The position numbers were made by a program, and so were the translations under genes. This document shows, one piece after another, positions 204 to 30,886 of a DNA stretch of 32,000 bases. The DNA comes from Thalassobaculum sp. (GTDB taxonomy: Bacteria; Pseudomonadota; Alphaproteobacteria; Thalassobaculales; Thalassobaculaceae): contig JBLZTD010000001.1 of NCBI GenBank assembly GCA_048983575.1, positions 2,562,005 through 2,594,004 of the forward strand, written 5' to 3'. Below the pieces are notes generated by a model. The model saw only the letters and a list, made by a program, of their open reading frames with translations, was not told the DNA's origin and ran no database searches. Numbering within the stretch: the stretch's first letter is position 1; every line of letters starts with the position of its first letter.

Positions 204-1208
204 ATGCGAATGACGGTCTCCACGAAGCGCGTTTTCGTCCTGGGGGCGACGGGTACGATCGGTCGGGCAACGGTCCGTGCCCTTGTCGATCGGGGCCATG
301 AGGTCGTCTGTTTCGCACGGCCCCGCGCGGGCGTGAACGGTCGGCTGGGCGCGGCGGAGATCGCCGCCCTCTTTCCCGGCGCCACCGTGCGGTTCGGCGA
401 CGTCACCGATCCGGGGTCGCTTTCTCGCGACGGTTTCGCCGGGGAACGGTTCGACGCGATCGTCTCCTGTCTCGCGTCCAGAACGGGCGATCCGGGCGAT
501 GCCTGGGCGATCGATCACGACGCGCACCTGGCCGCTCTGCAGGCCGCGCAGGCTGCGGAGGTTGGTCATATGGTGCTGTTGTCGGCCATATGTGTGCAGA
601 AGCCGCTGCTCGCTTTCCAGCAGGCGAAGCGGGCGTTCGAGACCGCCCTGATGGAGTCGGGCATGACCTATTCCATCGTCAGACCGACGGCCTTCTTCAA
701 ATCTCTGTCCGGGCAGGTCGAGCGTCTCAAGCGCGGAAAACCCTTCCTGGTGTTCGGGGATGGCGAGCTCACCGCGTGCAAACCCATCAGCGACAGCGAT
801 CTGGGGCGCTACCTTGCCCGGTGTCTGGAAGATGGGACCCTGCAGGACCGCGTGCTTCCCATCGGCGGTCCGGGGGCCGCCCTCACGCCGCGTCAGCAGG
901 GGGAGCTCCTGTTCTCGCTGATGGGCCGGGAGCCGCGATTCAGCCACGTGCCGGTCCGTATGCTCGACGCGGTGATCCAGGTCCTCAGTCTCGCGGGGCG
1001 GGTCTCGCCGGCCGCCGCCCGAAAGGCCGATCTCGCCCGGATCGGCCGATACTACGCGACCGAATCGATGCTCGTCTGGGATGTGGGAGCAGGGCGCTAC
1101 GATGCGGAGGCCACGCCGTCCTTCGGGGAGGACACCCTGCGCGATCACTACGCCAGGCTGATCAGCGGCGAGGCGACGGTCGAGCGTGGGGATCACGCTG
1201 TGTTCTGA
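204..1208 (+). CDS. NAD(P)H-binding Rossmann-fold reductase, DVR/BciA-like (divinyl chlorophyllide 8-vinyl-reductase family) / NmrA-like
   Basis: In-frame part of ORF 93..1208. The dinucleotide-binding motif VFVLGATGTIGRA begins right after the Met codons at 204/210, so the upstream 37 codons are probably not translated. The internal block YSIVRPTAFFKSL...FGDGELTACKPIS matches what I recall of the DVR/BciA family. The start is ambiguous (204 or 210). Confidence 0.7.
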   Translation: MRMTVSTKRVFVLGATGTIGRATVRALVDRGHEVVCFARPRAGVNGRLGAAEIAALFPGATVRFGDVTDPGSLSRDGFAGERFDAIVSCLASRTGDPGDAWAIDHDAHLAALQAAQAAEVGHMVLLSAICVQKPLLAFQQAKRAFETALMESGMTYSIVRPTAFFKSLSGQVERLKRGKPFLVFGDGELTACKPISDSDLGRYLARCLEDGTLQDRVLPIGGPGAALTPRQQGELLFSLMGREPRFSHVPVRMLDAVIQVLSLAGRVSPAAARKADLARIGRYYATESMLVWDVGAGRYDAEATPSFGEDTLRDHYARLISGEATVERGDHAVF

Positions 1209-1225
1209 AAGCATCGTCGATATTG

Positions 1226-1244
1226 TTCGTTTTAATGGAACGAA
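1226..1244. promoter_or_regulatory. Inverted repeat TTCGTT-N7-AACGAA (reads as TTCG-N11-CGAA, LysR-box-like) in the AT-rich gap upstream of dabB
   Basis: Read directly: ttcgttttaatggaacgaa, with 6-bp perfect arms. It sits in the only AT-rich stretch (1209-1280) between the reductase stop and the dabB start. No cognate regulator gene is seen next to it. Confidence 0.3.
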
Positions 1245-1324
1245 TTGATAGAAACATTGTAATTTTTGTGTGAATAGGGCTCCGCTACATACCGCCGACC
1301 CAATTGCTCTTACCGGAGTCGGCC

Positions 1325-2899
1325 ATGTCATCTCTTGCCCCCGTTCTTGCGCTTGCGGCACCGCTCTGTCTCGCCGGTGCTGCCGTCCTCGCCGGCACGC
1401 AACCCGGGCGTCGACCGGTGCGGGCGCTGTCGGCGGGGACGCTCGGGACGGGCGCCGCCCTGGCGGCCGCCGTTCTCTCGGCTTTACTCCTTGTGTTGAA
1501 CGCCCCCGTCCAGCCACGGGGCGCGACCTCCCTTGTGCCGGTGCACCTCGATGCGATCAGCGCGGTCATGCTGGTCCTGGTGACCTTCCTTGGAGCGGTG
1601 ATCGTTCGTTTCAGTCGGAACTATCTCGACGGCGATGAGCGTCAGGGGCTCTTCACCGCCTGGCTCTGTCTCACTCTGGCGGCGGTCGCGACGCTGGTGA
1701 TCGCGGGCGATCTCTTTCTGCTGGTCGGTGCCTGGATCGCGACTAGCCTCGCGCTGCACAGGCTGCTGACATTCTATCCGGGCCGGCGTCTGGCCATCGC
1801 CGCGGCCGGTAAGAAATTCATTACCGCCCGGGCCGGCGATGTCTGCCTGATCGCGGCAGCCGTCATGCTCTATCTCGCTTTCGGATCGACGGACGTTGCC
1901 GCGATCCTGGACACCGCGGAGCGGGGCGGCGCCGGGGAGGCGGGGGGACTGGTTACCGCGGCCGGCCTGCTGATCGCCTTTGCGGCGCTCCTCAAGTCGG
2001 CGCAGTTTCCGACCCACGGCTGGCTGCTGGAGGTGATGGAGACACCGACGCCGGTCTCCGCTCTGTTGCACGCGGGCGTCGTCAACGCCGGCGGCTTCCT
2101 GGTGCTGCGGTTCGCCGATGTGATGCTTCTGGCGACCGGCGCGTTGCCCCTGCTGGCGATCGTCGGAGCGGCGACGGCCCTGATCGGGTCTGCCGTCATG
2201 CTGCGGCAGACCAGCGTCAAGGTCTCCCTAGCCTGGTCGACGATCGCGCAGATGGGCTTCATGCTTCTGCAATGCGGGCTTGGGGCGTTCTCCCTTGCCG
2301 CCCTGCATATCGTGGCCCATTCGCTCTACAAGGCCCACGCCTTCCTGTCTTCCGGCAGCGTCGTGGATCTCGCCCGGTACGCACAGCCGGTTCGGGTCGA
2401 TACCCCGCTTGCCGTGCGCAGCTTCCTGCCCGTGCTACTAGTCGCACTTGCGGTCGCCTACGGGATCGCTTTCTCGGCCGGACTCGGGCTGCACGAGGAT
2501 GCGGGCGAGCTGGCTCTGGGCGCGATCCTGGTCATGGCGCTCTCGATCCTGCTGACCCGTCAATCGGCGATGCGCTCCGGCACTCGGCTGGTGTTCAGGA
2601 GCGCGCTGCTCGCCGGATCGGTGACGGGCGGCTATCTCGCCCTCCACGCGGCTGCGTCCTGGGTGCTGGGTTCCGCCCTGCCGGCGGCTCCGGAACCGGG
2701 TCCGATCGGTCTGCTGATCCACGCGGCGATCGTGCTCTCGTTCCTGGCGGTCACCGTCGTCCAGGTCTGCGGGTATCTCGGCGCCGGTGATCGAGGTCCA
2801 CGCGGCTTCACCGTGCATCTCGCCAATGGCTTCTACGCCAACGCTTGGTTTGACCGGCTCGTCGGCAGCTACCGACTGACCGGACACGGGCGTCGTTGA
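1325..2899 (+). CDS. dabB: DabB, NuoL/Nad5/MrpA-type proton-conducting membrane subunit of the DAB inorganic-carbon pump
   Basis: ORF 1304..2899 (TTG). I prefer the ATG at 1325, preceded by GGAG at 1315-1318. The protein is polytopic and hydrophobic, with PF00361-like blocks (KSAQFPTHGWLLEVMETPTPVSALLHAGVVNAGGFLVLRF; WSTIAQMGFM). It stands alone without other complex I or Mrp subunits and lies immediately upstream of a DUF2309 gene. Confidence 0.85.
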   Translation: MSSLAPVLALAAPLCLAGAAVLAGTQPGRRPVRALSAGTLGTGAALAAAVLSALLLVLNAPVQPRGATSLVPVHLDAISAVMLVLVTFLGAVIVRFSRNYLDGDERQGLFTAWLCLTLAAVATLVIAGDLFLLVGAWIATSLALHRLLTFYPGRRLAIAAAGKKFITARAGDVCLIAAAVMLYLAFGSTDVAAILDTAERGGAGEAGGLVTAAGLLIAFAALLKSAQFPTHGWLLEVMETPTPVSALLHAGVVNAGGFLVLRFADVMLLATGALPLLAIVGAATALIGSAVMLRQTSVKVSLAWSTIAQMGFMLLQCGLGAFSLAALHIVAHSLYKAHAFLSSGSVVDLARYAQPVRVDTPLAVRSFLPVLLVALAVAYGIAFSAGLGLHEDAGELALGAILVMALSILLTRQSAMRSGTRLVFRSALLAGSVTGGYLALHAAASWVLGSALPAAPEPGPIGLLIHAAIVLSFLAVTVVQVCGYLGAGDRGPRGFTVHLANGFYANAWFDRLVGSYRLTGHGRR

Positions 2900-2912
2900 G
2901 GAGGATGAACCG

Positions 2913-5429
2913 ATGAATGCTCAGACCGGACTCAAAGCCGCGGCCGATGTGCAGCCCGACCGGGCCTGGACCGAAACCAATGCGCGGGACCCGATGGCAC
3001 CCATTGAAACAGCGCTGCGTCGGATCGCGCCTCTCTGGCCGCTCGACAGGTTTGTCGCCGTCAATCCGTTCCTCGGACTCGACGACCACAGCTTCGGCGA
3101 GGCCGTTACTCGGATCGAACAGGTGTCCGGCGGCCGCATGCTCATGGATCGCGCGTTCTTCGCGGAAGCTCTGAAGACGGGACGGATCGAGGATCGGGAT
3201 ATTGCCGACGCCTTGGCGGCCGTCGGGACGCGGCCGGGGCTGCCGCAGTCGGTGGCGGATGTCAAAGCGGCGCTCTCCGACGACCAGCACGTCCCCTCAG
3301 CCACGGCACCGATCAAGACGGTGGCGGATCTGGCGGCCGCTCTGACGGGGACCGACTGGGTGCAGATCCTCGTGCAGCAGATCTCGCAATCCGCGGCGGC
3401 GTATTTCGGATCGCACGCCGACGGTCCAAGGGGAACGATGTCCCGGTCGGGCTTCTACGAGGCTTGGCGCTCGACGGTCGTCGCCGACCGGACTCCGGAA
3501 GTCCTCGGTCTCAAGGGCGCGCGCCGGCATGCGCAGCATCTTCCGGACGATGCGCGGGACATGGTCGTCGAGGGCCTTCGTCTTCTCGGCGTGACCGGGG
3601 CCGGGAGCGAATTCTACTGCCATCGGCTGCTCATGAGCGTTTCCGGCTGGGCCGGCTACGCCCGGCACCTGCACTGGGAGGCGGAGCTTGCCGGCGGCGG
3701 CGACGATCACCTGCTCGAGCTGCTGGCCGCCCGGCTGGGCTGGGAGGTCATTCTGCGGGGCAGTCTGTTCGACGATATCGACATGTCGTCTCTCTGGTCC
3801 GTGGAGCGCTCCCGGTATGCGTCCGACGCGGGCGGATCTTCGGATCGGGCGTTAGAGGAACTGCTCCTGTCGGCCTACGAGCGGGCTTGGCAGCGGCGGT
3901 TCGTTCTCGGATTGGCTGGGCGCGAAGCTACCCCCGCCGCACTCCGGCCGGCGGTGCAGGCCGCGTTCTGCATCGACGTCCGCTCCGAGGTCTTCAGGCG
4001 GGCCTTCGAAAGCGTCTCCCCGGATATCGAGACCATCGGTTTCGCCGGGTTTTTCGGTCTGCCGCTGGAGCATGTGCCGTTAGGGGCCGAGCGGGGCCTC
4101 AGCCACTGCCCGGTTCTCGTTCCTGCGGGCATTACTGCGCGCGAGGCGGCGTCGAGCGAGGCGGAGAACCGGGCCCTGACAGAGACGCGGCAGGTGCGGC
4201 GGGGCCTCCTCGATGCGTGGAGCAAGGCGAAACGCGCGTCCGTCTCGAGCTTTCCGTTCGTTGAAGTCGCGGGGCTCGGTTACGCCGTGAAGCTGGCCAC
4301 CGATGCCCTCGGGATCACGCGGCCGGTGGAGGATCCGAAGCGGGCGGGGCTCACGCCGGCCGAGAAATCGCGTCTCGGTCCGGGTGCCGATCTTTTCGCC
4401 GTCCAGGACGGGACACATGGCATCGGGACCGCGCAGCGGGTCCAGATGGCGACGTCCATCCTGAAGGGAATGTCCCTAACGCGGCGTTTCGCTCCCCTGG
4501 TTCTGCTCGTCGGACACGGGGCGTCGACCGTCAACAATCCTCATGCGAGCGGACTGGATTGCGGCGCATGCGGCGGTCAGAGCGGTGAGGTGAATGCCCG
4601 GGTGGCGGCGGCGATCCTGAACGATCCCGAGGTCCGCAACGGTCTCGCGGAGAGCGGACTCGTCATCCCCGACGACACGCTTTTCGTCGGCGCTCTGCAC
4701 GATACAACGACGGACGAGGTGACCCTTTTTGCCGACGGCGCCGACTCGTTGCGCCACGTAGCCGTCCTCGACGACTGTCGGGAATGGCTGGCCGCCGCCG
4801 GCCGGATCGCCCGGCTGGAGCGGATGCCGAAGCTGAACGGCGCTGACCCCTCAGACCAGCTTGCGGCGGTTCAGGCGCGGGCCCGCGACTGGAGCCAGGT
4901 TCGGCCGGAATGGGGGCTGGCCGGGTGTGCGGCGTTCGTCGCGGCACCCCGCGGTCGGACCGCCGGTCTCGATCTCGACGGTCGGGTCTTTCTGCACAGC
5001 TACGACTGGAAGAGCGATCCCGAGTTCGCGGTTCTTGATCTGATCATGACGGCACCGATGGTCGTCGCCAGCTGGATCAACCTCCAGTACTACGGGTCGA
5101 GCGTCGATAATGCCGTGTTCGGCAGCGGCAACAAGACACTGCACAACGCGGTCGGCGCCATCGGCGTGTTCGAAGGCAACGGTGGCGACCTGCGGACCGG
5201 TCTGCCCTGGCAGTCGGTCCATGATGGCGAGCGCTTGGTCCACGAACCCATGCGGCTGTCCGTCTTCATCGAAGCCCCGCAGGCGGCGATCGACGGGGTG
5301 ATCGAGCGGCACGAGGCGGTCGGCCGGTTGGTGCGGAACGGCTGGATCGCTCTCTTCTCGCTGGACGAGACGGGGAACGCTGCCCGGCGCTGCGCCGCAC
5401 CGGACCGGTGGGAGCCGGTGGAGCCGTGA
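2913..5429 (+). CDS. dabA: DabA (DUF2309/UPF0753), putative zinc-dependent CO2-hydrating subunit of the DAB pump
   Basis: 838-aa ORF with SD GAGGAGG 6 nt upstream, 13 nt after the dabB stop. Family-typical blocks are WPLDRFVAVNPF, FCIDVRSE, GHGASTVNNPHASGLDCGACGG and SWINLQYY. Candidate ligands are C353, D355, H535 and C550. Confidence 0.9.
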   Translation: MNAQTGLKAAADVQPDRAWTETNARDPMAPIETALRRIAPLWPLDRFVAVNPFLGLDDHSFGEAVTRIEQVSGGRMLMDRAFFAEALKTGRIEDRDIADALAAVGTRPGLPQSVADVKAALSDDQHVPSATAPIKTVADLAAALTGTDWVQILVQQISQSAAAYFGSHADGPRGTMSRSGFYEAWRSTVVADRTPEVLGLKGARRHAQHLPDDARDMVVEGLRLLGVTGAGSEFYCHRLLMSVSGWAGYARHLHWEAELAGGGDDHLLELLAARLGWEVILRGSLFDDIDMSSLWSVERSRYASDAGGSSDRALEELLLSAYERAWQRRFVLGLAGREATPAALRPAVQAAFCIDVRSEVFRRAFESVSPDIETIGFAGFFGLPLEHVPLGAERGLSHCPVLVPAGITAREAASSEAENRALTETRQVRRGLLDAWSKAKRASVSSFPFVEVAGLGYAVKLATDALGITRPVEDPKRAGLTPAEKSRLGPGADLFAVQDGTHGIGTAQRVQMATSILKGMSLTRRFAPLVLLVGHGASTVNNPHASGLDCGACGGQSGEVNARVAAAILNDPEVRNGLAESGLVIPDDTLFVGALHDTTTDEVTLFADGADSLRHVAVLDDCREWLAAAGRIARLERMPKLNGADPSDQLAAVQARARDWSQVRPEWGLAGCAAFVAAPRGRTAGLDLDGRVFLHSYDWKSDPEFAVLDLIMTAPMVVASWINLQYYGSSVDNAVFGSGNKTLHNAVGAIGVFEGNGGDLRTGLPWQSVHDGERLVHEPMRLSVFIEAPQAAIDGVIERHEAVGRLVRNGWIALFSLDETGNAARRCAAPDRWEPVEP

Positions 5430-5442
5430 ACCCTTCGGGCCG

Positions 5443-6030
5443 TTAGCGGCCGGTTCCGGCCAGCGCGCTGTCGATCAGGGTCTTGGCCATGGATTTGGCG
5501 GTGCCGGCCGCCTCCGGCATTCCCCGGACCTGCGCGGTCACGATGGCGCCCTCCTTCAGCAGGGCGAGCTGTTCCGCGAGTTCCTTCGGATCGCGTGCAC
5601 CGATCTCCGTGCAGAGTGTGACCAGGTAGTCGACGATCTGCTGCTTGTGCTCGGCCGATGTCCGGTGCGCCGGATGGTCCAGCTCGGCGAACTCGCCGGC
5701 TGCGTTGATGAAGGCGCAGCCGGAAAAGCCGAGCCCTTCGAATGCGCGCCCGCGGAACCAGTCCTCCAGCGCATCGAACATCGCGAGAAGCCGATCGCGC
5801 GGATCGGCGGAGGCCCTTTCCATCTCTCCCGTCAGCCAGTTCCGGAACTGCTCGTCCCGGCGCTGCAGAGTGGCCAGGATCAGTTCGTCCTTGGATCGGA
5901 AGTGCTTGTAGAGGGTCATCTTCGCCACCCCGGCCTCGGCCAGGACCTTGTCGATTCCGGTGGCGTGGAAGCCTTGGGTGTAGAACAGGCGCAGGGCGGT
6001 ATCGACCAGCTCGTCTCGGCGCGATTTCAC
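5443..6030 (-). CDS. TetR/AcrR-family transcriptional regulator
   Basis: ORF 5443..6048 (TTG). The GTG at 6030 is preceded by AAGGAG with an 8-nt spacer, so I prefer 6030. The N-terminal HTH is TGIDKVLAEAGVAKMTLYKHFRSKDEL. The gene is convergent with dabA (13-nt gap). Confidence 0.88.
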   Translation of the reverse strand: MKSRRDELVDTALRLFYTQGFHATGIDKVLAEAGVAKMTLYKHFRSKDELILATLQRRDEQFRNWLTGEMERASADPRDRLLAMFDALEDWFRGRAFEGLGFSGCAFINAAGEFAELDHPAHRTSAEHKQQIVDYLVTLCTEIGARDPKELAEQLALLKEGAIVTAQVRGMPEAAGTAKSMAKTLIDSALAGTGR

Positions 6031-6067
6031 GGCACTCGCTCCTTCCAAAGGCTCAGAGGAAATTATG

Positions 6068-6084
6068 CAGACAGGTCTGTATAT
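6068..6084. promoter_or_regulatory. Operator candidate copy 1 (CAGACAGGTCTGTATAT) containing the inverted repeat CAGAC-N2-GTCTG
   Basis: An exact 17-nt sequence is repeated at 6160-6176. This copy lies about 38 nt upstream of the TetR start, in the divergent intergenic region. Confidence 0.5.
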
Positions 6085-6159
6085 GTATCGGTTCCTGCTG
6101 GATTTAAAGGAGAATCCGGGCTGGACCCGAAGAAATGCGATTTAGGACTTGTGAAAAGA

Positions 6160-6176
6160 CAGACAGGTCTGTATAT
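6160..6176. promoter_or_regulatory. Operator candidate copy 2 (CAGACAGGTCTGTATAT)
   Basis: Exact 17-nt repeat of 6068-6084, about 50 nt upstream of the AhpD-like gene start at 6226. Confidence 0.5.
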
Positions 6177-6225
6177 ATCTCTTCATCGCAACGGCGCGCT
6201 GGCGCCTGATCCGAGGAGAGTCCCG

Positions 6226-6774
6226 ATGACCCGTATTCCGCTTCCCGCCACCATCGACGCGGCGCCCGCCGCAGCCCGGCCGTTTCTCGAAGGCGTGGAA
6301 AAGATGCTCGGCAGTGTGCCGAATCTGTTTCGCCTGACCGCCAACAGCCCGTCCGCATTGGAAGGCTATCTCGGCCTGAATTCGGCCCTGTCCAAAGGCG
6401 CGCTCAAGCCGCAGACGCGGGAGCGCATCGCGCTCGCCGTGGCGCAGATCAACGGCTGCGACTACTGCCTTTCGGCCCATACCTATCTCGCCAAGAACCT
6501 GGCAAAGCTCGACGATGCGGAGATCGCCGCGAACCGAGCCGGTTCTTCGAGCGACCCGAAAGCCGATCTGGCGGTGCGGTTTGCCGTGCAACTCGTGCAA
6601 CAGCGCGGCCACGTGACCTCCGCAGACGTCGAGGCGGTCCGTCTTGCGGGCTACGGGGACGGCGAAATCGTCGAGATCGTGGCGCATGTCGCGCTCAACA
6701 CGCTGACCAACTACCTCAACGAGGCTTTCGGGACGCCGATCGACTTCCCGACCGTCAGCGCGAACGCCGCCTGA
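6226..6774 (+). CDS. Carboxymuconolactone decarboxylase / AhpD-like alkylhydroperoxidase-core family protein
   Basis: In-frame part of ORF 5647..6774. The ATG at 6226 is preceded by GAGGAGAG. The CxxC motif INGCDYCLSAH is typical of the AhpD-like core. The long N-terminal extension of the ORF is antisense to the TetR gene. Confidence 0.85.
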   Translation: MTRIPLPATIDAAPAAARPFLEGVEKMLGSVPNLFRLTANSPSALEGYLGLNSALSKGALKPQTRERIALAVAQINGCDYCLSAHTYLAKNLAKLDDAEIAANRAGSSSDPKADLAVRFAVQLVQQRGHVTSADVEAVRLAGYGDGEIVEIVAHVALNTLTNYLNEAFGTPIDFPTVSANAA

Positions 6775-8449: not shown

Positions 8450-10248
8450 TCAGGCCGACTTCTTAAGAGCGGCGGGCTGCTCCAGGATATCCGGACCCAG
8501 ATCGACGGCCGCGTCGTATTGCGAGAGGTAGATCTTCCCGGTCAGATCGTCGATGAAGTGCGTCCGCAGCAGCCGGTCCATGACCGGTCCCTTCACCTCG
8601 GAGAGGTGGAACCGAATCCCCAGGAGGTCCAGGCGGTGATTGATCGCCTCCAGGGATTCCAGCGCGCTGCTGTCGATCTCGTTGACCGCCGAGCACATCA
8701 GAATGACATGCTTCAGTTGCCGGTCGCCGGCCGCCCGGTCGTAGATGTAATCCTCGAGAGACCGGGCGTTCGCGAAGTAGAGACTTCTCGTCTACCCGCA
8801 GGGTGAAGACGGTCGGCACCGTCTGGACGGCGTGGCGCCGGATGTTCCGGAAGTGCTGGGTGCTTCGGGACCAGACCGACTTCGGCGATGTGGGGGCGCG
8901 AGGTCTTGAAGAGGAACAGGAGGATCGATAATGCGACCCCGGCGGAAACCCCGGCTTCGACTCCGAGGCCGAGGGTGACGGCGATGGTCGCGGCGGCCGC
9001 GGCGAAGTCGGTCTTGGAATATCCCCAGGTGCGTTTGAGGACCGTGAAGTCGACCAGGGACAGAACGGCGACGATGATCGTGGCGGCGAGCGTCGCCTTC
9101 GGCAGGTCGTGCAGCAGCGGGGTCAGGGCGAAGGCGGCGAGACAGATGCCGACCGCCGTGAAGGCGCCCGCCGCCGGTGTTTCCGCGCCGGCGTCGAAAT
9201 TGACGACCGAGCGGGCGAAGCCCCCGGTGACGGGATATCCGCCGGTGACCGAGGCCGCCACGTTGGCGGCGCCCAGGCCGATGAGTTCCTGATCCGGGGC
9301 AATCCGCTGGCGTTTCTTGGCGGCAAGGGTCTGGGCGACGGAGACGGACTCGACAAATCCGATGACCGAGATCAGCACCGCCGAGCCGAGCAGGCTGGTC
9401 CACAGATCCATGTCGAAAACCGGGATCGTGAGCGGCGGCAGGCCTTGCGGTACGGTCCCGACGATGGCCACGCCGACGGAGTCCAGGTCGAGAATCCGCG
9501 TCGCCAGGATCGTCGCCGCGACGGCGGCGACCGGGCCGGCCCTGGCCAGCAGATCGGCCATCCGGCCGCCGATCCCCATACGGATCAGCAAGGGCTTCAG
9601 ACCTTTGCGGACCCAGAACAGAAACGCCGTCGCGGCGGCGCCGATTGCCAGGGTGACGGGGTTCGTCTCCGACAGATGGGTGACCAGCGACCTCGCCAGC
9701 TCGTACAGATTGTGGCCCGAGGCGTCGATGCCGAGGATGTGCTTGAGCTGGCTGGTCGCGATGATGATACCGGAGGCGGTGATGAATCCGGCGATCACCG
9801 GATGGCTGAGAAAGTTCGCCAGAAAGCCGAGCCTCAGGGCTCCCATCGCCAGAAGAATGAGACCCGACAGCAGGGCGAGCACGATGGCTGCCGCGGCGTA
9901 GTCCGCCGGGTTGGTGAGCCCGAGATTTCCGATTGCGGCCGCGGTCATGAGCGAGACGACCGCCACCGGCCCGACCGCCAGGGCGCGGCTGGTCCCGAAC
10001 ACCGCGTAGGCGACCAGCGGCAGGATTGAGGCATAGAGCCCCATCTCGGCCGGGAGGCCTGCGAGCAGCGCATAGGCCAGAGACTGCGGGATCAGCATGA
10101 TGGTGACGATCACCGCCGCCATCAGGTCGCTGGCCAGCGTGTCCCGGTCGTAGCGCGCCCCCCAGTCGAGGATCGGCAGGTATCTGGCGAGCGGTCGCGC
10201 GGCGGGGGGCGCCGCTCCCGCCGGCATCTGGGTCTGAGGGTCGGACAT
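8450..10248 (-). pseudogene. SulP-family anion transporter with C-terminal STAS domain, frame-disrupted (2 sites)
   Basis: ORF 8713..10248 carries the membrane domain. The family-typical continuation ...STQHFRNIRRHAVQTVPTVFTLRVDE / SLYFANARSLEDYIYDRAAGDRQLKHVILMCSAVNEIDSSALESLE... (STAS) is split across three frames. The frame jumps lie at about 8864 and about 8786. The 1799-nt span minus 2 nt gives 599 codons. Confidence 0.85.
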
Positions 10249-10275: not shown

Positions 10276-11975
10276 TCAGGCGCCAGTGGGGCCGGCGCTC
10301 ACCTTCTCGGGCTTGGCCAGCCATTCGCGGCCGCGCAGCATGGCCCGCCAGTAGATCGGCGGCAGAAACCGCTCCTTCAGCAGCCATGCCAATCGGCTCG
10401 GCCTGCGTCCCGTCGATCAGCCAGCCCGGGAAACTCGGCAGCAGCTTTGCCGCCATAGCCGAATTCGGCCAGAACGATCTTGCCCCGCTCCACGGTCAGC
10501 GGGCAGGAGCCGTAGCCGTCGTAGTGCGCCATGCCTGCGCCTTCCCGGCCATGTCGGCCACCACGTTTTCGGCGACGATCGGCGCCTGCTTGCGGGCGGC
10601 GGCGGCGGTCTTGGCGTTCGGCGCGTTCATCACGTCGCCGAGGCTCCAGACGTTGGCGTACGTCCTTATGGCGCAGGGTCTCCTGGTCGACATCGACCCA
10701 GCCCGCAGCATCGGCGAGCGGGGAGACCCGCACGAAATCGGGTGCCGTCTGCGGCGGGCAGACATGGATCATGTCGAAGCCGACCTCCACCGTCTCCGGC
10801 GCCTTGTCCGGTTTGGTCGACCTCGAACCAGGCTTTCTTCGCCGGGCCGTCGATCGCTGTCAGATCGGTGGAATGAAGTTGAGCTCGCGCATCGTAACGC
10901 TCGACATACTCCATCAGGGCCGGGACGTACTCCTTCACCCCGAACAGCACGCCGCCGGCGTTGTAGAAGCCGACATCGATGTCCCTGAGCCGGCCGGTGC
11001 GGCGCCAATGATCGGCCGACAAGATACATCGCCTTTTGCGGTGCGCCGGCGCATTTGATCGGCATCGGCGGCTGGGTGAACACCGCTTTGCCGCTCCTCA
11101 ACCCCTGCACCAGGTCCCAGGTATAGGGCGCGAGGTCATAGCGGTAATTTGACGTCACGCCGTTGCGTGCCGAGCGTGTCGACGAGGCCGTCGACCCCAT
11201 GCCAGTCCAGCTTCAGACCCGGGCAGACGATCAGGCGCTTGTACTTGACGACCCGGCAGCCATCGAGAATGACGGCGTCGGCCTTGGGTTCGAACGCGGC
11301 CACCGCGGATTTGATCCAGCGCACACCCTGCGGGATCAGCGAGGCCATGGTCTTGGCGGTTTCGTCCGCTTCGAAGATGCCGCCGCCGACCATGGTCCAG
11401 CCCGGCTGATAATAGTGCACGTCCGCCGGATCGATGATCGCGACGTCCAGGCTCGGCACGCGGGCGATCAGGCTCGCGGCGACAGAAATTCCGGCGGCCC
11501 CGCCGCCGACGATGACGACGTCGTGGGAGGCGTCGCCGGTTTCCGTCGGCGTGCGGCCGCCGTTGGCGATGCGCCGTACGACACCCGCCATGTCGTAGCC
11601 CGCCGCCTTGGTGCGGGCCAGGATGTCCGGCAGCGGCCGAGTGCCGGCTTCCGAAAGCGCCCATAGAGTGGCGGAGCGGGTCCCCGTGCGGCAATAGGCC
11701 AGCACCGGCTTCGGCAGTTCGGCGAGAACCTTGCCGAATTCGGCGGCATCCTCGTCCCGCACCATCCCCGAGGTCACCGGCTGGTACCGAGCTTCCATAC
11801 CGGCCGCCGCCGCCGCCTTCTGGATCTCCTCGAATGTCGGCTGATCGGCGCCTTCCCCGTCGGGGCGGTTGCAGATGACCGCCCGGAATCCTGCCGCCGC
11901 GGCCTCGGCCATGTCGGCGGGGGAGACCTGCGGGCGGACCGTGAGCCCGTCGGTGAGCTTTCTGTTCTCTTCCAT
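10276..11975 (-). pseudogene. DUF442/TIGR01244 (PTP-fold sulfurtransferase-like) domain fused to an FAD-dependent sulfide:quinone-oxidoreductase-like flavoprotein, frame-disrupted (7 sites)
   Basis: Starts at the ATG at 11975 (SD GGAGG upstream), inside ORF 11136..12923. Contains CRTGTRS and the FAD motif VVIVGGGAAG. The canonical SQR-like sequence can be followed through ORFs 10769..11200, 10666..11022, 10377..10790, 10496..10765 and 8792..10456 to the stop at 10276. Frame jumps lie at about 11168, 11020, 10815, 10661, 10533, 10445 and 10407. Confidence 0.8.
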
Positions 11976-12019
11976 ACCGAGATCCTCCCTGGATTCTTTT
12001 CGCGGGTACCCGCCGATCT

Positions 12020-12908
12020 TCAGAGCGCGTTGACCGGCAGTTTGAGGAAGGTCCGGCCGTCCCTGTCGGGCGGGGGCAACTGGCCGGCCCGCATGTTCAC
12101 CTGAAGCGACGGCAGGATGAGCGCGCGGCATGTCCAGGGTCGCGTCGCGCGCTTCCCGCATGGCGACGAACTCGTCGCGGGTCTTGCCGCCGCCGACATG
12201 GATGTTATGGGCCTTCTCGTCCCGGACCGTGGTCTCCCACCGGATCTCCCGGCCGTTGGGGCCGTAGTCGTGGCACATGAACAGCCGCATATCGTCGGGC
12301 AGGGCCAGGACCTTCTGGATCGAGTCGTACAGGGTTCCGGCATCGCCCCCGGGGAAATCGGCCCGTGCGCTGCCGCCGTCGGGCATGAACAGCGTGTCGC
12401 CGACAAAGGCGGCGTCACCGATCACATGGGTCATGCAGGCCGGCGTGTGGCCGGGCGTGTGCATTGCGAAGCCTGTCATGCCGCCGATCCGGTACGTGTC
12501 ACCGTCGTCGAACAGCCGGTCGAACTGGCTCCCGTCCCGCTGGAATTCGGTGCCCTCGTTGAACACCTTGCCGAAGGTCTCCTGGACCACCGTGATGTTG
12601 CGGCCGATGCCGAGCTTGCCGCCGAGGGCCTGCTGGATATACGGCGCCGCGGACAGATGGTCGGCATGGACATGGGTCTCGATCAGCCACTCGACCGTCA
12701 GGCCCTTGTCCCTCACATAGGCGATGATGGCGTCGGCGTGATCGTAGGTGATCCGGCCGGCCGCGTAGTCAATGTCCATTACCGAGTCGATGACGGCGCA
12801 GGCGCTGGACGCCGGGTCCTTCACGACATAGCTGATCGTATTGGTGGCCTCGTCGAAGAAGGCCTCGATCTCCGGTCTGGTGGACATGTCGATGGGATTG
12901 TCGGTCAT
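12020..12908 (-). pseudogene. MBL-fold persulfide-dioxygenase-like hydrolase (Blh/PDO type), one frame disruption
   Basis: N-terminal part of ORF 11136..12923. I prefer the ATG at 12908 because GGAGGAA lies 6 nt upstream. The metal motif is HVHADH. After ...DATLDMPR the family-typical tail LILPSLQVNMRAGQLPPPDRDGRTFLKLPVNAL continues in the frame of ORF 12020..12418. The jump lies at about 12122 in a gcgcgcg run. Confidence 0.8.
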
Positions 12909-12930
12909 CGGGTGTTCCTCCATTTGGTCG

Positions 12931-13396
12931 TTATCTGGTGGCTTGGGGCCCGGGCTCCGATTGGGCGGCGGACGGGCCGGTGCCGCTCGGTTTGGGAAGC
13001 ATGCGGGCGGCCAGGATGCCGGCGACGACGGCGGCCACGAACGCCGCCATCTCGATGCGCCCTGTTCCCAGGGCCGGCAGCGCGCCGCCCGGGCAGAAGC
13101 CGGCGATCCCCCAGCCGATGCCGAAGATCGCCGCGCCCGAGATCAGTCTCGTGTCCAGATCCCGCCGGGTCGGAACCTGGAACGTCTCGGCCAGGACGGG
13201 GGCCGGACGGCGAAGGACCAAGCGGTAGCCGAGGGCGGTGACCGCCAGCGCGCCGCCCATCACGAAGATCAGGCTCGGATCCCAGGTGCCGGCGACATCG
13301 AAGAAATTCAGCACCTTGGCGGGGTTCGCCATGCCGGAGATGACGATGCCAAGTCCGAAGACGAGACCGATCAGGTAGGCGGTGAGGACTTCGCAT
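12931..13396 (-). pseudogene. DUF6691 / YeeE-YedE-like sulfur-transport membrane protein (second half-transporter), start region frame-disrupted
   Basis: ORF 12931..13332 has GIAGFCPGGALPALG. The expected first TM helix (EVLTAYLIGLVFGLGIVISG) is in frame upstream of Met-13332, but the only ATG (13396) is offset by one base (ATG-c-GAA...). The alternative is an intact shorter CDS at 12931..13332. Confidence 0.6.
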
Positions 13397-13398
13397 GA

Positions 13399-13830
13399 TC
13401 AGCCTCCGATGCCGTGCCGAATGACGAAGACGGTCGTCGCGGTGGTCGCCATGAACACCAGCGTCGCCGCAATCGACCGGGGCGAGAGTCGGGCCATGCC
13501 GCAGACCCCATGGCCGGAGGTGCAGCCGTTGCCCAGGGACGCGCCGAAACCGACGATCACGCCGCCGACGATCAGGTAGGTCAGCGAGACGGGAACGGTG
13601 ATCTCGGGGAGGGCGCCGGTTGCCAGAAGCATGACCGTCGGCGCGCTCGCCATGCCGGCAACCATCGCCGCCCGCCATACCCATTCCTGAAATCCGGAGG
13701 GCAGCACGATCCCCGACAGAATTCCTGTCGCGCCGGCGATCCGGCCGTGCAGCGCCATGAGAAGGACCGCCGCCAGCCCGATCAGAAGGCCGCCTGCGAG
13801 TGACGCGAAGGGGGTGAAAGTGGTTTCCAT
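13399..13830 (-). CDS. YeeE/YedE-family sulfur-compound transport membrane protein
   Basis: 143-aa ORF with SD GGAG upstream. It carries the conserved Cys-containing motif GNGCTSGHGVCGMARLS. Confidence 0.85.
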   Translation of the reverse strand: METTFTPFASLAGGLLIGLAAVLLMALHGRIAGATGILSGIVLPSGFQEWVWRAAMVAGMASAPTVMLLATGALPEITVPVSLTYLIVGGVIVGFGASLGNGCTSGHGVCGMARLSPRSIAATLVFMATTATTVFVIRHGIGG

Positions 13831-13890
13831 GCAGCAAGCTCCACGTCTACGGAAATGGCGTATGTAATATGATCCACCAATCCGCCGGAC

Positions 13891-13915
13891 CCGTCGGTGA
13901 CAAAGTCACCAACGG
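13891..13915. promoter_or_regulatory. 25-bp near-perfect palindrome CCGTCGGTGAC-AAA-GTCACCAACGG (operator candidate, copy 1)
   Basis: Read directly, with 10/11 complementary arm positions. Its centre lies 73 nt upstream of the YeeE start codon in the 101-nt gap after the peroxiredoxin gene. The core is shared with 15987-16009. Confidence 0.5.
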
Positions 13916-13931
13916 GCCGCGATGCGGGCGG

Positions 13932-14570
13932 TCAGCCGAGCATCCGGGTCGAGAAGTACCAGTCGGTCGTCTTATAGCCCTCTGACGCCCGGGCTTCGGC
14001 AGCGGCGGCGGTCGCGGGCGGCGGGACAATGACCGCCTCGCCCGGCTGCCAGGCTTCCGGAGTCGCGACCTTGTTGGCGTCGGACGTCTGAAGCGCCTGG
14101 ATCAGCCGATAGAACTCGTCGATCGAGCGTCCGTTCGTCATCGGATAGTAGACCATCGCCCGCAGGATGCCGTCGGGGTCGATCACGAAGGTGGCGCGGA
14201 CCGCCGACGTATCCGAGGCCCCCGGCTGGATCATGCCGTAGGCCTTGGCGACCTCCATCGACAGGTCGGCGATGATCGGGAAGGGGATCTCGACGCCGAA
14301 ATTGTCCTTGATGTTGCGCATCCAGGCGATGTGGGCGTAGTGGCTGTCGATCGAGAGCCCGAGAAGATCGCAGTTGAGTTTGGCGAAGTCGTCGGCCCGG
14401 CGGGCGAAGGCCATGAACTCCGTCGTGCAGACCGGGGTGAAGTCGGCCGGATGCGAGAACAGGATGAGCCACTTGCCGCGGTAGTCGGCGAGCCGGCGCC
14501 GACCGTCGGTGGTCGGGGCGTCGAACGCCGGAGCGGGTTCGTTCAGCCGGGGGAATTGAATCTCGGTCAT
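13932..14570 (-). CDS. 1-Cys peroxiredoxin (Prx6-like)
   Basis: 212-aa ORF. The peroxidatic motif is FTPVCTTE, followed by LLGLSIDSHYAHIAW. No resolving-Cys motif is evident. Confidence 0.9.
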   Translation of the reverse strand: MTEIQFPRLNEPAPAFDAPTTDGRRRLADYRGKWLILFSHPADFTPVCTTEFMAFARRADDFAKLNCDLLGLSIDSHYAHIAWMRNIKDNFGVEIPFPIIADLSMEVAKAYGMIQPGASDTSAVRATFVIDPDGILRAMVYYPMTNGRSIDEFYRLIQALQTSDANKVATPEAWQPGEAVIVPPPATAAAAEARASEGYKTTDWYFSTRMLG

Positions 14571-14619
14571 GGAATGGATCCTTTCTTTGGTAGTGGGACT
14601 CGGGAAGGAGCGGGAGCGG

Positions 14620-15222
14620 CTACTCGCTTCTGACGAACATCTTTTCCCGGTTGAGCGTGTATCCCCACGGCAGGCCGCTGTTCTTCCAGCCGTCCTTCAG
14701 GCGCCAGGGCCCGTTGGGGTGGTCCTTCAGGGCGCCGCCCTCGAAGCCGTCGACGACGACGTAAACACGCTCGAACCCTCGACCCTCCAGGGCCTTGGCG
14801 GAAGGCGCCCCGCGGGATCCGCCGGAGCGGCACATCAGAATGACCGGTGCCGACTTGTCGAGACCCTGTGCGGCGAGGGCCGCATCGATGGCATCTGCGA
14901 AGCCCGGGTTGCGCTCCATCAGGAACACAGATTTCTTCGCGTTCCAGGCCCCCGGATTGGAGAGCAGGAAGGGGATGTTGACGTCGACCACGTCCGTGAA
15001 TCCGGTGAACATGATCTCGATCGGATCGGGGACGTCGACGAACAGCACCTTGCTGCCTTCGGCCGTCTTCATGTCGTGGGCTTCCTTGGCCGTGAGGTAC
15101 AGGCCCCAGGGCGTCTGCTTGGCCGGATCGCTCGGGGCGTCGGCCGCATGGGCGGGAAGGGGTCCGAGCGTCAGGGCGCAGGCCATGGCGCCGGCCAGAA
15201 CCGCTCTTCGTAACGTGGTCAT
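14620..15222 (-). CDS. Rhodanese-domain sulfurtransferase with N-terminal signal peptide (periplasmic)
   Basis: 200-aa ORF with SD GAGGAGG upstream. The signal-like N-terminus is MTTLRRAVLAGAMACALTLGPLPAHA. The active-site loop is CRSGGSR. Confidence 0.85.
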   Translation of the reverse strand: MTTLRRAVLAGAMACALTLGPLPAHAADAPSDPAKQTPWGLYLTAKEAHDMKTAEGSKVLFVDVPDPIEIMFTGFTDVVDVNIPFLLSNPGAWNAKKSVFLMERNPGFADAIDAALAAQGLDKSAPVILMCRSGGSRGAPSAKALEGRGFERVYVVVDGFEGGALKDHPNGPWRLKDGWKNSGLPWGYTLNREKMFVRSE

Positions 15223-15235
15223 CGGTCGTGCCTCC

Positions 15236-15691
15236 TCAGAAACTCAGGACCCGGGTGTCGTCGTCCATCAACCGGGCAGCCATCGCCGGCGGTTTGGCGA
15301 CGGTCACGCCGTCGATCAGGGCGCCGGCCCCGACTCCCCGGTTCGGCAGATAGAGGGCGCAGACCTGCACCGATGTGCCGTGGGCCTGCATGATTTTCTT
15401 CATCAGTCCCTGCGGGCTCATGTCCTTGGGGGCCTGGGGGGCCGTCGCCGACGCGGGGGCCTCCTTGAGGGCGATGTCCCCGCCGGGGCCGCACAGCAGG
15501 ATGTGGCCCTTGGCCCCCTGTTGCACCGCCTGCATCGTCAGCACCATTGCCATCAGCTGGGTCTGCGGATCCGGCGACGTGACGACGGTCACCAGCGCCT
15601 TGTCGTCCCCGGCCAGGGCGGCGGAAGCGCCCATCACACCGGTAATGGCAAGTAGGGCAGAGGCGGCGATCGTGTTGCGAAGAAATCGCAT
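15236..15691 (-). CDS. DsrE/DsrF-like family protein with signal peptide
   Basis: 151-aa ORF with SD GGAG upstream. The signal-like N-terminus ends AALAG. It has the DsrE-like layout with conserved Cys residues (ILLCGPGG, VCALYLP). The family call is from memory. Confidence 0.65.
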   Translation of the reverse strand: MRFLRNTIAASALLAITGVMGASAALAGDDKALVTVVTSPDPQTQLMAMVLTMQAVQQGAKGHILLCGPGGDIALKEAPASATAPQAPKDMSPQGLMKKIMQAHGTSVQVCALYLPNRGVGAGALIDGVTVAKPPAMAARLMDDDTRVLSF

Positions 15692-15716
15692 GGCGAACTC
15701 CTGTCTGAGAGAGGTT

Positions 15717-15929
15717 TCAGATCCGGCAGGTATTCATGCCGAGCAGCCGATAGAGCGGGCAGAATCTCAGGCCGGCGGTCAGGACGAGAACGGCGCCGAC
15801 GACCGGGACGCCGAAACGGGCCACAGGCATGTCCCAGAGGGCGAATTCGGTGACGAAAGGCAGGGCGATGAGCGCCACGCCCAGAACCAAGCGGGCGATG
15901 CGGTCGAAATTTCCGACGTTTGCAGTCAT
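15717..15929 (-). CDS. DUF2892 (YgaP-like) small membrane protein
   Basis: C-terminal part of ORF 15717..16007. The ATG at 15929 has GGAGAA upstream. Family-typical features are NFDRIARLVLG... and the C-terminal RFCPLYRLLGMNTC. The longer ORF start would translate the palindrome at 15987-16009. Confidence 0.75.
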   Translation of the reverse strand: MTANVGNFDRIARLVLGVALIALPFVTEFALWDMPVARFGVPVVGAVLVLTAGLRFCPLYRLLGMNTCRI

Positions 15930-15986
15930 GGCGGCTTCTCCGGGTGCTTCGTTGAACACCCGTACCTTGGCGGTTTGCCGCGAGGA

Positions 15987-16009
15987 CGTCGGTGACATTG
16001 TCACCAAGG
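15987..16009. promoter_or_regulatory. Palindrome CGTCGGTGAC-ATT-GTCACCAAGG (operator candidate, copy 2)
   Basis: Shares CGTCGGTGAC-N3-GTCACCAA with 13891-13915. Its centre lies 69 nt upstream of the DUF2892 start and about 60 nt downstream of the Crp/Fnr gene stop. Confidence 0.5.
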
Positions 16010-16067
16010 CTATGGCAATGCGGAAAGACCGTCCGTACCCCAGCCGGGGCGTCGGTGGGACCTTAGG

Positions 16068-16724
16068 CTAGGCGGCGGCGAAGGCCTCGAGCGCGCCCTG
16101 GTCGCGCACCGTGATCCGTCCCCGCGCCGCGGCGATCCACCCGCGCCGCTGAAACTCCTGAAGCTGGCGCGAGACCACTTCCCGTGCGGTGCCGAGCTCC
16201 GTCGCAAGTTGGTGATGCGTGAGCTGAATGTCGCCTTTGTCGCTCTCAAGTTCGAGGAGCTTCTGTGCCAGGCGGATATCCACCCGCTGGAAGGCGATCT
16301 CCTCGATCACCATGAAGAGATCGGTGATGCGCTTCGAATAGGCGGTAAAGACGAAACTCCGGAACACGCTCGAGCGGACGATCATGTCCTCGAAGACGTT
16401 GCGGGGAATGGCGGCCGCGGAGACATCGGTTTCGGCGATGCCTTCGGCACTGTAGTCCTCGTAGGCCAGGAGGCAGGCCGTCGTCAGGACGCAGCTTTCA
16501 TGGGCATGGACCCGGTACAGAACGATCTCGCGTCCGGACTCGGAGACCTGTTGAACCCGGACGACGCCCGACAGGAGAAGTAACAGGTTTTCCGGCGCCT
16601 TTCCCGGTCCGAAGATCACGGTGCCGGCCGGTACCGTGACGATCCGGCTGCGTTCCGTCAGGGTTTTCCGGAGATCCGCATCCAGCCGCGAGAGCCCGGG
16701 AAACTGGTCGATCCAATCAGACAA
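16068..16724 (-). CDS. Crp/Fnr-family transcriptional regulator (cNMP-binding-like domain + C-terminal HTH)
   Basis: 218-aa ORF with a TTG start preceded by GGGGAGGG with a 7-nt spacer. The C-terminal HTH is LTHHQLATELGTAREVVSRQLQEFQRRGWI. It has no FNR-type N-terminal Cys cluster. Confidence 0.88.
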   Translation of the reverse strand: MSDWIDQFPGLSRLDADLRKTLTERSRIVTVPAGTVIFGPGKAPENLLLLLSGVVRVQQVSESGREIVLYRVHAHESCVLTTACLLAYEDYSAEGIAETDVSAAAIPRNVFEDMIVRSSVFRSFVFTAYSKRITDLFMVIEEIAFQRVDIRLAQKLLELESDKGDIQLTHHQLATELGTAREVVSRQLQEFQRRGWIAAARGRITVRDQGALEAFAAA

Positions 16725-17101: not shown

Positions 17102-18151
17102 TCAGCAGATACGCGGAAGCTGTTCGCCGCTGAGCATGTCGATCATCCGATCGATTCCGAGCGCTCCCCGACATCTGACCTGGCCGGCCGGCCCGTCCTG
17201 CACCCTTCCGATGACGACGGAGTCCCGCGAGACATCAAACCGGCGCAGCTCGTCCAAAGCGTGGTCCGCGTCATTCGGAGCGACAAAGGCGATGAAGCGT
17301 GCCTCGTTCGCAACATGCAGCGGGTCGAGGCCGAGCAGCTCACACGCCGCGGATACCTGGGAACTGACCGGGACAAGGGCCTCATCGATGGCCATAGCCA
17401 GCTTTGCCGTTTCGGCGATCTCGACCAGGGCGCTCGCCAGCCCGCCCCGGGTCAGGTCGCGCAGGCAATGGAGTCCGATCCCCGCTTCGACCATCGCCGA
17501 TACGGGGGCGTTGACCGCGGCACAGTCGCTTTCGATTGCCGGCTCGAACCCGAAGCCTTCCCGGGCCGCCATGACCGCCATCCCGTGCCGGCCGATATCG
17601 CCGCTGAGAATGATCGCGTCGCCGTCGCGCACGGCCTCCGGGCCGATCCGGCCCTCGGTGATGACCCGGCCAATCCCCGACGTGTTTACGAACATGCCGT
17701 CCGCCTTGCCGCGATCGACCACCTTGGTGTCGCCGGTCACCAGCCGGACCCCGGCGGCTCTCGCCGCATCGCGCATGGAGACCGCAACCCGGCGCAGGGT
17801 TTCGAGCGGCAAGCCTTCCTCCAGGATCAGGCCGACGCTCAGATACAGCGGGCGGGCGCCGCACATGGCGAGATCGTTGACCGTCCCGTTGACCGCGAGC
17901 GTCCCGATGTCCCCGCCGGGAAAGAACAGCGGCTCCACCACATAGCTGTCGGTCGTGAACGCGAGCGGTCCGTCGAGATCGAGTGTGGCGCCGTCGTGGC
18001 GCCGGCCCAATTCGGGATCGTCGAAGATCGGCAGCAGGATCGAGTCGAGCAGATGCGCCATGCGTCGGCCGCCGCCGCCATGGGCGAGCTGGACCGTATC
18101 GGTCGTGTTGACCGGTAGGGGACACACCACGCCGCCGCTTCCGTCGCCCAT
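17102..18151 (-). CDS. hypE: Hydrogenase maturation protein HypE
   Basis: ORF 17102..18157 (TTG). I prefer the ATG at 18151, which lies 2 nt after the hypD stop. It has an AIR-synthase-like fold sequence and the diagnostic C-terminal PRIC. Confidence 0.92.
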   Translation of the reverse strand: MGDGSGGVVCPLPVNTTDTVQLAHGGGGRRMAHLLDSILLPIFDDPELGRRHDGATLDLDGPLAFTTDSYVVEPLFFPGGDIGTLAVNGTVNDLAMCGARPLYLSVGLILEEGLPLETLRRVAVSMRDAARAAGVRLVTGDTKVVDRGKADGMFVNTSGIGRVITEGRIGPEAVRDGDAIILSGDIGRHGMAVMAAREGFGFEPAIESDCAAVNAPVSAMVEAGIGLHCLRDLTRGGLASALVEIAETAKLAMAIDEALVPVSSQVSAACELLGLDPLHVANEARFIAFVAPNDADHALDELRRFDVSRDSVVIGRVQDGPAGQVRCRGALGIDRMIDMLSGEQLPRIC

Positions 18152-18153
18152 CG

Positions 18154-21826: not shown

Positions 21827-21831
21827 CGTCG

Positions 21832-22583: not shown

Positions 22584-22588
22584 GCTCC

Positions 22589-24654: not shown

Positions 24655-24655
24655 T

Positions 24656-25955: not shown

Positions 25956-25986
25956 CTCGTGCCTCCGTCCCGGCGCAGTTCGGCGC

Positions 25987-27108
<1,122 letters not shown>

Positions 27109-30797: not shown

Positions 30798-30886
30798 CGT
30801 GGAGCGCCTCCTCAGTTCCAGCGGGCAATCTGCCGGGTACTTTTTCAGATACCGTTAAATTATATAGTAAATTTTATATTTATAAT

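Follow-up and report, generated by a model that had tools for sequence, protein, structure and literature searches.

A putative two-subunit DAB2-type inorganic-carbon pump and its conserved operator-like site in a Thalassobaculum genome

What does a NuoL-like gene do beside a DUF2309 gene in an alphaproteobacterial genome, within a stretch of DNA that holds no carboxysome genes? The two genes that pose this question, here called dabB and dabA, reside in a 32,000-nucleotide (nt) segment of Thalassobaculum sp. (GenBank assembly GCA_048983575.1, contig JBLZTD010000001.1, positions 2,562,005 to 2,594,004), referred to below as the window; coordinates are those of the window unless a related locus is named. 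A preliminary description of the segment had read the pair as a DAB system, an energy-coupled inorganic-carbon pump composed of a membrane subunit (DabB) and a carbonic-anhydrase-like subunit (DabA), and had laid weight on its non-carboxysomal setting. Taken as a whole, the locus is best explained as a two-subunit complex of the DAB2 type (DAC, or MpsAB-like) that, judging from its sequence, very probably converts CO2 to bicarbonate.

Homology to DAB2 and conservation of functional residues

The two dab genes are complete and uninterrupted. The Pfam profile PF10070 ("DabA", DUF2309) aligns with the 838-residue dabA product from the first to the last of its 747 positions at 881.3 bits, for a cut-off of 25, and the 524-residue dabB product matches PF00361 (146 bits) and PF00662 (33 bits), which bears out the family memberships expected by the preliminary description. 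Among all chains of the PDB, DabA has a sole match, the DabA2 subunit of Halothiobacillus neapolitanus (9rd0_A; 641.7 bits, 45% identity, residues 31-835 against 21-824), and the top match of DabB is the partner of that protein, DabB2 (9rd0_B; 272.6 bits, 44% identity, residues 7-513). The PF10070 score, these best solved relatives and the aligned active-site residues described below together uphold the earlier assignment of the pair to the DAB systems.

The family to which the pair belongs is large. At least 4004 homologues of DabA are present in the protein collection that was searched, and a search for the identical protein found no record of it; the nearest relatives are metagenomic proteins of 94% and 78% identity, followed by a protein from a Thalassobaculaceae metagenome-assembled genome (72%) and one from Thalassobaculum sp. 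OXR-137 (63%). In a scan of genome contigs with DabA, the sole match was a distant locus from Vulcanimicrobiota (47% identity). In 92 related loci, drawn from genomes and metagenomes, dabB immediately precedes dabA on the same strand in every case where the sequence suffices to tell, and natural fusions of DabA with DabB also occur among the homologues (P0069, P0091 and P0115).

A NuoL-like protein might also be a remnant of respiratory complex I or of an Mrp antiporter, or an accessory subunit of either, whose gene stands beside a DUF2309 gene by accident, and the name of the sole NCBIfam model that DabB matches above threshold points that way (NF006029, "NADH-quinone oxidoreductase subunit L"; 384.7 bits for a cut-off of 380). 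Contradicting this explanation, which is extremely improbable and which we reject, are the PDB ranking, in which the best complex I or NDH-1 subunit is NdhF at 146 bits, 126 bits behind DabB2; the isoleucine (I138) that occupies the position of NuoL E144, as in DabB2; the adjacency of dabB and dabA in all related loci examined; and the lack of any other nuo or mrp gene in the window, where Pfam was run on all sizeable open reading frames (ORFs) and an Oxidored_q6 match at 23665-24753 proved to be a hydrogenase small subunit. NCBIfam holds no model for DabA, and public records therefore label DabB and DabA as NuoL and DUF2309/YbcC; standard pipelines would call the present pair "NADH-quinone oxidoreductase subunit L" and "DUF2309/YbcC family protein," and renaming them DabB and DabA is safe.

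Functional residues were mapped from printed alignments to the DabA2 and DabB2 subunits of a 2026 structure paper (10.64898/2026.03.13.711513). All 21 of the mapped functional positions of DabA2 are identical in the window protein. They include the zinc ligands C353 (3969-3971), H535 (4515-4517) and C550 (4560-4562), equivalent to DabA2 C351, H524 and C539; D355 (3975-3977) and R357, which match the D353-R355 dyad of DabA2; and the water-network residues S358 (S356 in DabA2), H596 and D601. The lining of the first tunnel (F377, A378, F380, H695, V707, I711, A714 and P715) and that of the second (L641, R664 and W667) are likewise identical. Five of these residues, C353, D355, R357, H535 and C550, are unchanged in 18 homologues. 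The preliminary description had put forward C353, D355, H535 and C550 as four candidate zinc ligands; its coordinates are exact and all four residues align to DabA2 C351, D353, H524 and C539, but the aspartate is not a ligand in the solved DAB2 structure, where the zinc site is Cys2-His-H2O and the Asp-Arg dyad holds the zinc-bound water (10.64898/2026.03.13.711513).

Three DAB-specific motifs, GFAGFFG, NNPxxxxLDCGACGG and DWxxxRPEWGL, are all present in the window DabA, the second (as a loop) and third having been described previously (10.64898/2026.05.01.722082). The last of them contains a leucine (L669) at a position where ordinary beta-carbonic anhydrases carry a Gln or His that stabilizes bicarbonate. 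E451 aligns to the membrane-finger glutamate of DabA2, E444, replacement of which by Ala or Gln abolishes DAB2 activity (10.64898/2026.03.13.711513). In DabB, all eight mapped positions agree: I138, R169, D172, K224, H249, H328, H332 and K336 correspond to DabB2 I151, R182, D185, K235, H260, H339, H343 and K347, respectively, and the D172-K224 ion pair is thereby kept. The structure paper names the DabA2 residues and, for DabB2, the K235/D185 pair and I151; the remaining DabB positions are our own NuoL-channel equivalents.

Similar comparisons identify the subtype. The DAB1 systems are defined by an essential third subunit, DabC, and by a strictly conserved NNPYESALDCGACGG motif (10.64898/2026.05.01.722082). 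No third small membrane gene is found between 1209 and 5443, where only dabB and dabA precede a convergent TetR gene; at the position of the DAB1 motif the window DabA reads NNPHASGLDCGACGG, with HASG replacing YESA as in DabA2; and the zinc His follows the first zinc Cys at a distance of 182 residues (173 in DabA2, 245 in the DabA1 of Thermocrinis albus). The pair is therefore of the two-subunit DAB2 type and not of the DAB1 type.

By homology with DAB2 and DAB1, CO2 that has diffused into the cell would travel through a hydrophobic tunnel to the buried Cys2-His zinc site of DabA (C353, H535 and C550), where the zinc-bound water, held by D355-R357, would hydrate it to bicarbonate. Protons flowing down the membrane gradient would pass through DabB, by way of K224, H249, H328, H332 and K336, and reach the finger residue E451 of DabA, which would be inserted into DabB. 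This flow could gate or drive hydration in one direction, preventing the reverse reaction and allowing bicarbonate to accumulate in the cytoplasm. Conceivably, such a complex could instead be primarily a cation translocator, Na+-coupled or generating membrane potential, with ion or pH homeostasis as its main task and bicarbonate as a secondary product: the MpsAB system of Staphylococcus aureus, as cited in the DAB2 structure paper (10.64898/2026.03.13.711513), was first described as generating membrane potential and complements a Na+ transporter mutant; the host is marine; and in one related locus (L010) dabBA adjoins a Na+/H+ exchanger and a P-type ATPase. DAB2, however, failed to rescue an nhaAB mutant and works without sodium (10.64898/2026.03.13.711513), all DabB2 proton-path residues and a full carbonic-anhydrase site are kept in the window pair, and the purifying selection evident at 21 of 21 catalytic and tunnel residues points to CO2 hydration as the function that is selected for, so that a primary role in cation transport seems improbable.

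The operon and the operator-like site upstream of dabB

The two genes form a compact operon (Table 1). A spacer of 13 nt separates dabB from the dabA ATG at 2913, and the same junctions in L001, L004, L007 and L009 are likewise 13-14 nt long. From this arrangement, translation of dabA is likely to be coupled to that of dabB. The ORF lengths, the gap and the GAGGAGG element given by the preliminary description were all exact when the sequence was read again. Both ORFs have a G+C content of about 0.80 at third codon positions and the codon-position pattern of real genes, in a window of 67% G+C. Upstream of dabB, the block CCGGAGTCGG(C/A)CATG is unchanged across four orthologous loci and the TTG further upstream, at 1304, shows no such conservation, which makes the ATG at 1325 the likely true start of dabB.

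Table 1. Features of the dabBA locus (window coordinates)
Feature	Coordinates	Strand	Description	Remarks
Bipartite operator-like site	1225..1265	+	GTTC-N9-GAAC dyad (LysR-type T-N11-A core inside), then AAACATTGTAATTT	
dabB Shine-Dalgarno, GGAG	1315..1318	+	inside the invariant block CCGGAGTCGG(C/A)CATG of four orthologous loci	
dabB	1325..2899	+	524 aa, NuoL/MrpA-like proton-conducting membrane subunit (by homology)	ORF list gives 1304..2899
dabA Shine-Dalgarno, GAGGAGG	2898..2904	+	read from the sequence	overlaps dabB stop TGA, 2897-2899
dabA	2913..5429	+	838 aa, beta-carbonic-anhydrase-like cytoplasmic subunit (by homology)	
C353-I-D355-V-R357-S358 codons	3969..3986	+	first zinc ligand, Asp-Arg dyad, water-network Ser	invariant in 18 homologues
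E451 codon	4263..4265	+	membrane-finger/elbow Glu, proposed proton path	aligns to DabA2 E444
H535 ... NNPHASGLDC550GACGG	4515..4577	+	second and third zinc ligands in DAB-specific loop motif	
DWSQVRPEWGL669 motif	4887..4919	+	Leu replacing Gln/His of ordinary beta-carbonic anhydrases	L669 = DabA2 L658

Immediately 5′ to dabB is an AT-rich gap of 116 nt, conserved among relatives, that holds a GTTC-N9-GAAC dyad and probably also the promoter from which dabB and dabA would be co-transcribed. The bipartite site built around this dyad is conserved at L001 (8300-8340), L004 (8291-8332) and L007 (8312-8353). In distant loci of Roseitalea, Pseudovibrio and Rhodanobacter, a divergent LysR gene stands beside dabB, an arrangement seen in 25 of the 59 distinct loci that offer enough upstream sequence, and the LysR-linked intergenic regions share a consensus beside the LysR start that consists of GTTCTATTAAA(A/G)C(A/G)GAACGAT, an interval of 6-7 nt and AAACAATGAATTTT.

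A weight matrix was derived from 14 dabBA loci flanked by a divergent LysR gene, all of them outside the family of the window. Its top match across the whole window, on both strands, is the operator-like site, at 34.5 bits, a score that none of 2000 shuffled versions of the intergenic region reaches (maximum 24.4). Against a uniform background the site scores 24.0, which lies within the range of 7-25 spanned by 11 held-out LysR-linked loci and above the values of 28 of the 30 LysR-less loci outside the window's family. The GTTC-N9-GAAC dyad by itself is not significant (two matches in the window, a result that 11 of 100 shuffles also achieve); significance is obtained with the bipartite matrix derived from independent loci and not with the simple dyad. 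Linkage of LysR genes to nuoL-ybcC operons was reported in 2017 (Klimchuk et al., PMC5700660), and we found no description of the operator itself in the literature.

In the window and in three Thalassobaculaceae relatives the divergent LysR gene is absent, and a co-oriented gene of the short-chain dehydrogenase/reductase (SDR) type takes its place. Because the operator is kept and a LysR gene is not present in the window, we propose a regulator acting in trans: sequence comparison indicates that dabBA is probably controlled by a LysR-type protein encoded elsewhere in the genome. A more specific scenario, which we offer tentatively and hold to be possible rather than probable, is that the dabBA operon of Thalassobaculaceae lost its adjacent LysR gene, retained the operator and is still switched on by a CO2- or bicarbonate-responsive LysR protein supplied in trans. 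If this were true, an inorganic-carbon regulon, widespread and so far undescribed, would be defined in heterotrophic Proteobacteria by the bipartite site (GTTC-N9-GAAC plus AAACAATGAATTTT), and the motif would allow it to be mapped across whole genomes. The regulation and use of DABs outside autotrophs are still poorly understood, and the conserved operator could serve to find the regulator or regulon of inorganic-carbon uptake in heterotrophs. The TetR gene was also considered as a DAB regulator. It is convergent with dabA, as the preliminary description had noted and as ORF and Pfam analysis confirms, and divergent from a CMD-DUF1348-isochorismatase unit; since it is missing at L004 and L007, two loci that retain both dabBA and the operator, such a role is unlikely.

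Genomic setting and probable role

The 32 kb contain no Rubisco, phosphoribulokinase or carboxysome shell gene according to Pfam on the sizeable ORFs and the PROSITE patterns for Rubisco and bacterial microcompartment (BMC) proteins, and the earlier statements that the window lacks these genes and that no other complex I or Mrp genes lie nearby are thereby confirmed. Applied as a positive control to 93 sequences, the BMC pattern did detect CsoS1-like shell genes near dabB in 9 of them, which exemplify the carboxysome-linked arrangement of DAB genes. These genes lie 2-4 kb from dabB in metagenomic loci (L006, L019-L021, L023, L026, L027, L031 and L092), upstream and on the same strand in eight of them and on the opposite strand in L092.

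The weight that the preliminary description placed on the non-carboxysomal context is not supported, this being the expected situation (10.1101/476713; PMC6689103; PMC8552792). DabA homologues in Rubisco-less genomes and heterotrophic pathogens were already part of the original DAB study, which proposed that they supply bicarbonate to biotin carboxylases or control pH (Desmarais et al., 10.1101/476713); experiments with MpsAB demonstrated that systems of this type take the place of carbonic anhydrase in non-autotrophs (PMC6689103; PMC8552792); and "even many heterotrophs" are said to use DABs (10.64898/2026.05.01.722082). Because DABs in Rubisco-less heterotrophs have already been described, the setting is not new. 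The pair is well preserved but an ordinary representative of a large and structurally characterized family; beyond annotation it matters little, being one further marine and apparently non-carboxysomal case, from an alphaproteobacterium, in a family of thousands. Its most likely role is to provide bicarbonate for carboxylases at low ambient CO2, as a substitute for or supplement to carbonic anhydrase, rather than to feed a carboxysome.

The pump could also serve autotrophic or mixotrophic CO2 fixation through Rubisco and Calvin-cycle genes located elsewhere, perhaps powered by H2 or reduced sulfur. Many DabA-bearing genomes hold form I or form II Rubisco (10.1101/476713), Thalassobaculum-like 16S sequences have been recovered in DNA labelled with 13C-bicarbonate (PMC3463544), and the window itself carries a [NiFe]-hydrogenase with hyp genes and a sulfur cluster that includes a persulfide-dioxygenase-like fusion, a rhodanese and YeeE-like transporters. 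Set against this are the absence of Rubisco, phosphoribulokinase and carboxysome genes from the 32 kb, the synteny in relatives, which retains only SDR, TetR, CMD, DUF1348 and isochorismatase genes beside dabBA, and the subunit set of the hydrogenase (Fer4_22, NAD_binding_1/DHODB, Oxidored_q6 and a 430-residue large subunit), which resembles that of soluble bidirectional group-3 enzymes. Hydrogenases of that kind are not known to be used for lithoautotrophic growth. A literature search for a link between Thalassobaculum or Thalassobaculaceae and Rubisco found nothing decisive, and we regard a role in autotrophy as doubtful.

Several points weigh against the bicarbonate-supplying DAB2-type complex favored here, or against parts of it. 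Rubisco, phosphoribulokinase or canonical carbonic anhydrases may be present elsewhere in the genome. The coupling ion is debated, with H+ advanced for DAB2 and Na+ proposed for MpsAB (10.64898/2026.03.13.711513), and the host, as stated above, is marine. A tblastn search found no LysR homologue in the window, and the regulator is hypothetical; a sigma-70 consensus scan of 1000-6400 yielded no promoter, and the terminator-like matches from the scan of that region fall inside genes. Finally, several 1-nt frameshifts in other genes of the window indicate imperfect sequence quality.

Two genes display such frameshifts. In a SulP-family transporter gene (8450-10248, minus strand), two 1-nt frameshifts, one near 8868 and one near 8787, break up the C-terminal STAS domain; the gene is either a pseudogene or the product of sequencing error. 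The SulP family includes the bicarbonate transporter BicA; the window gene is 3 kb from dabA, with unrelated genes in between. A beta-CASP/RNase J-like gene (27238-28609, minus strand) appears as two overlapping ORFs, with its Beta-Casp domain divided between frames near 27655, and this third apparent frameshift suggests indel errors in the assembly.

Gene order around dabBA is partly conserved. The Thalassobaculaceae metagenome-assembled genome has the order of the window (SDR, dabB, dabA, TetR on the opposite strand, CMD, DUF1348 and isochorismatase), the relative of 78% identity keeps only SDR, dabB and dabA, and Thalassobaculum keeps only dabB and dabA. The NmrA-like/atypical SDR gene upstream of dabB (204-1208, plus strand) is a conserved neighbor, recurring at 7284-8282 in L001 and 7299-8297 in L007, and in relatives it adjoins two SQS_PSY genes and an amine-oxidase gene in a group resembling HpnCDE of squalene/hopanoid synthesis. 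The preliminary description had called this gene a DVR/BciA-like reductase, an identity for which we find no support, its only matches being generic NAD(P)-binding, NmrA and PCBER-like/atypical-SDR ones.

Elsewhere in the window, a sulfur-handling group occupies 11136-16724 (minus strand), with a 1-Cys peroxiredoxin, a rhodanese, a Crp/Fnr regulator, two YeeE/YedE-like sulfur-transport genes and a 595-residue fusion of metallo-beta-lactamase (persulfide-dioxygenase-like), BLH-phosphatase-like and flavoprotein domains. A complete [NiFe]-hydrogenase cluster of the soluble type follows at 17102-27108 (minus strand), in which the Fer4_22 subunit, the NAD_binding_1/DHODB Fe-S subunit, the Oxidored_q6 small subunit and the large subunit are joined by a HycI-like protease and then by HypF, HypC, HypD and HypE. 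The end of the Fer4_22 gene is overlapped, in a different frame, by an ORF that encodes a cNMP-binding domain (25494-26165). Within 29799-32000, G+C content declines over the final 1-2 kb, from about 0.66 to 0.42; this end contains an RTX-repeat metalloprotease gene (29799-30797, minus strand) and a 278-residue ORF (31091-31927, minus strand) without a Pfam match, and it may be horizontally acquired DNA. No RNA element was found by Rfam at gathering thresholds, and no tRNA was found.

Relationship to known systems

Like the CupA and CupB systems of cyanobacterial NDH-1 (NdhF3/D3 and NdhF4/D4), the window pair would couple energy to one-way CO2 hydration on a membrane subunit of the NuoL/NdhF type. 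The Cup proteins, however, are unrelated to DabA and belong to a redox-driven, multi-subunit NDH-1, and the window holds no ndh or cup genes. Closer in kind is DAB1 of T. albus (10.64898/2026.05.01.722082), which shares the catalytic principle and three DabA motifs (the lid GxxGFFG, NNP....LDCGACGG and DW...RPEWGL) but has DabC, a longer DabA and a strict YESA, whereas the window has HASG and no dabC.

The MpsAB system of S. aureus and its Bacillus subtilis counterpart resemble the window pair in gene order, with the NuoL-like gene first and the DUF2309 gene second, in their non-autotrophic hosts, and in a proposed supply of dissolved inorganic carbon that is able to replace carbonic anhydrase (PMC6689103; PMC8552792). 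They differ in coming from Firmicutes and in being argued to use Na+, and their relatedness to the window pair is known through shared Pfam families only. The "clade A" LysR-linked nuoL-ybcC operons (COGNAT; PMC5700660) have the same gene order and a promoter with the GTTC-N9-GAAC dyad and AAACAATGAATTTT box, and differ in the divergent LysR gene that is missing in the window.

The nearest characterized system is DAB2 of H. neapolitanus (PDB 9rd0, 9rd8 and 9rd9). Its host is a carboxysome-bearing, chemolithoautotrophic gammaproteobacterium, in contrast to the Thalassobaculaceae-like alphaproteobacterium considered here, in which no genes of a CO2-concentrating mechanism occur within the 32 kb. 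Conservation relative to DabA2 is poor in the N-terminal domain, a trait of the family in general. The two pairs are alike in several respects: both consist of two subunits without DabC, with full-length identities of 45% for DabA and 44% for DabB, and they share the zinc site, the Asp-Arg dyad, the leucine that replaces Gln or His, the tunnel lining, the finger glutamate, the Lys/His/Lys path of DabB and the isoleucine at the position of NuoL E144.

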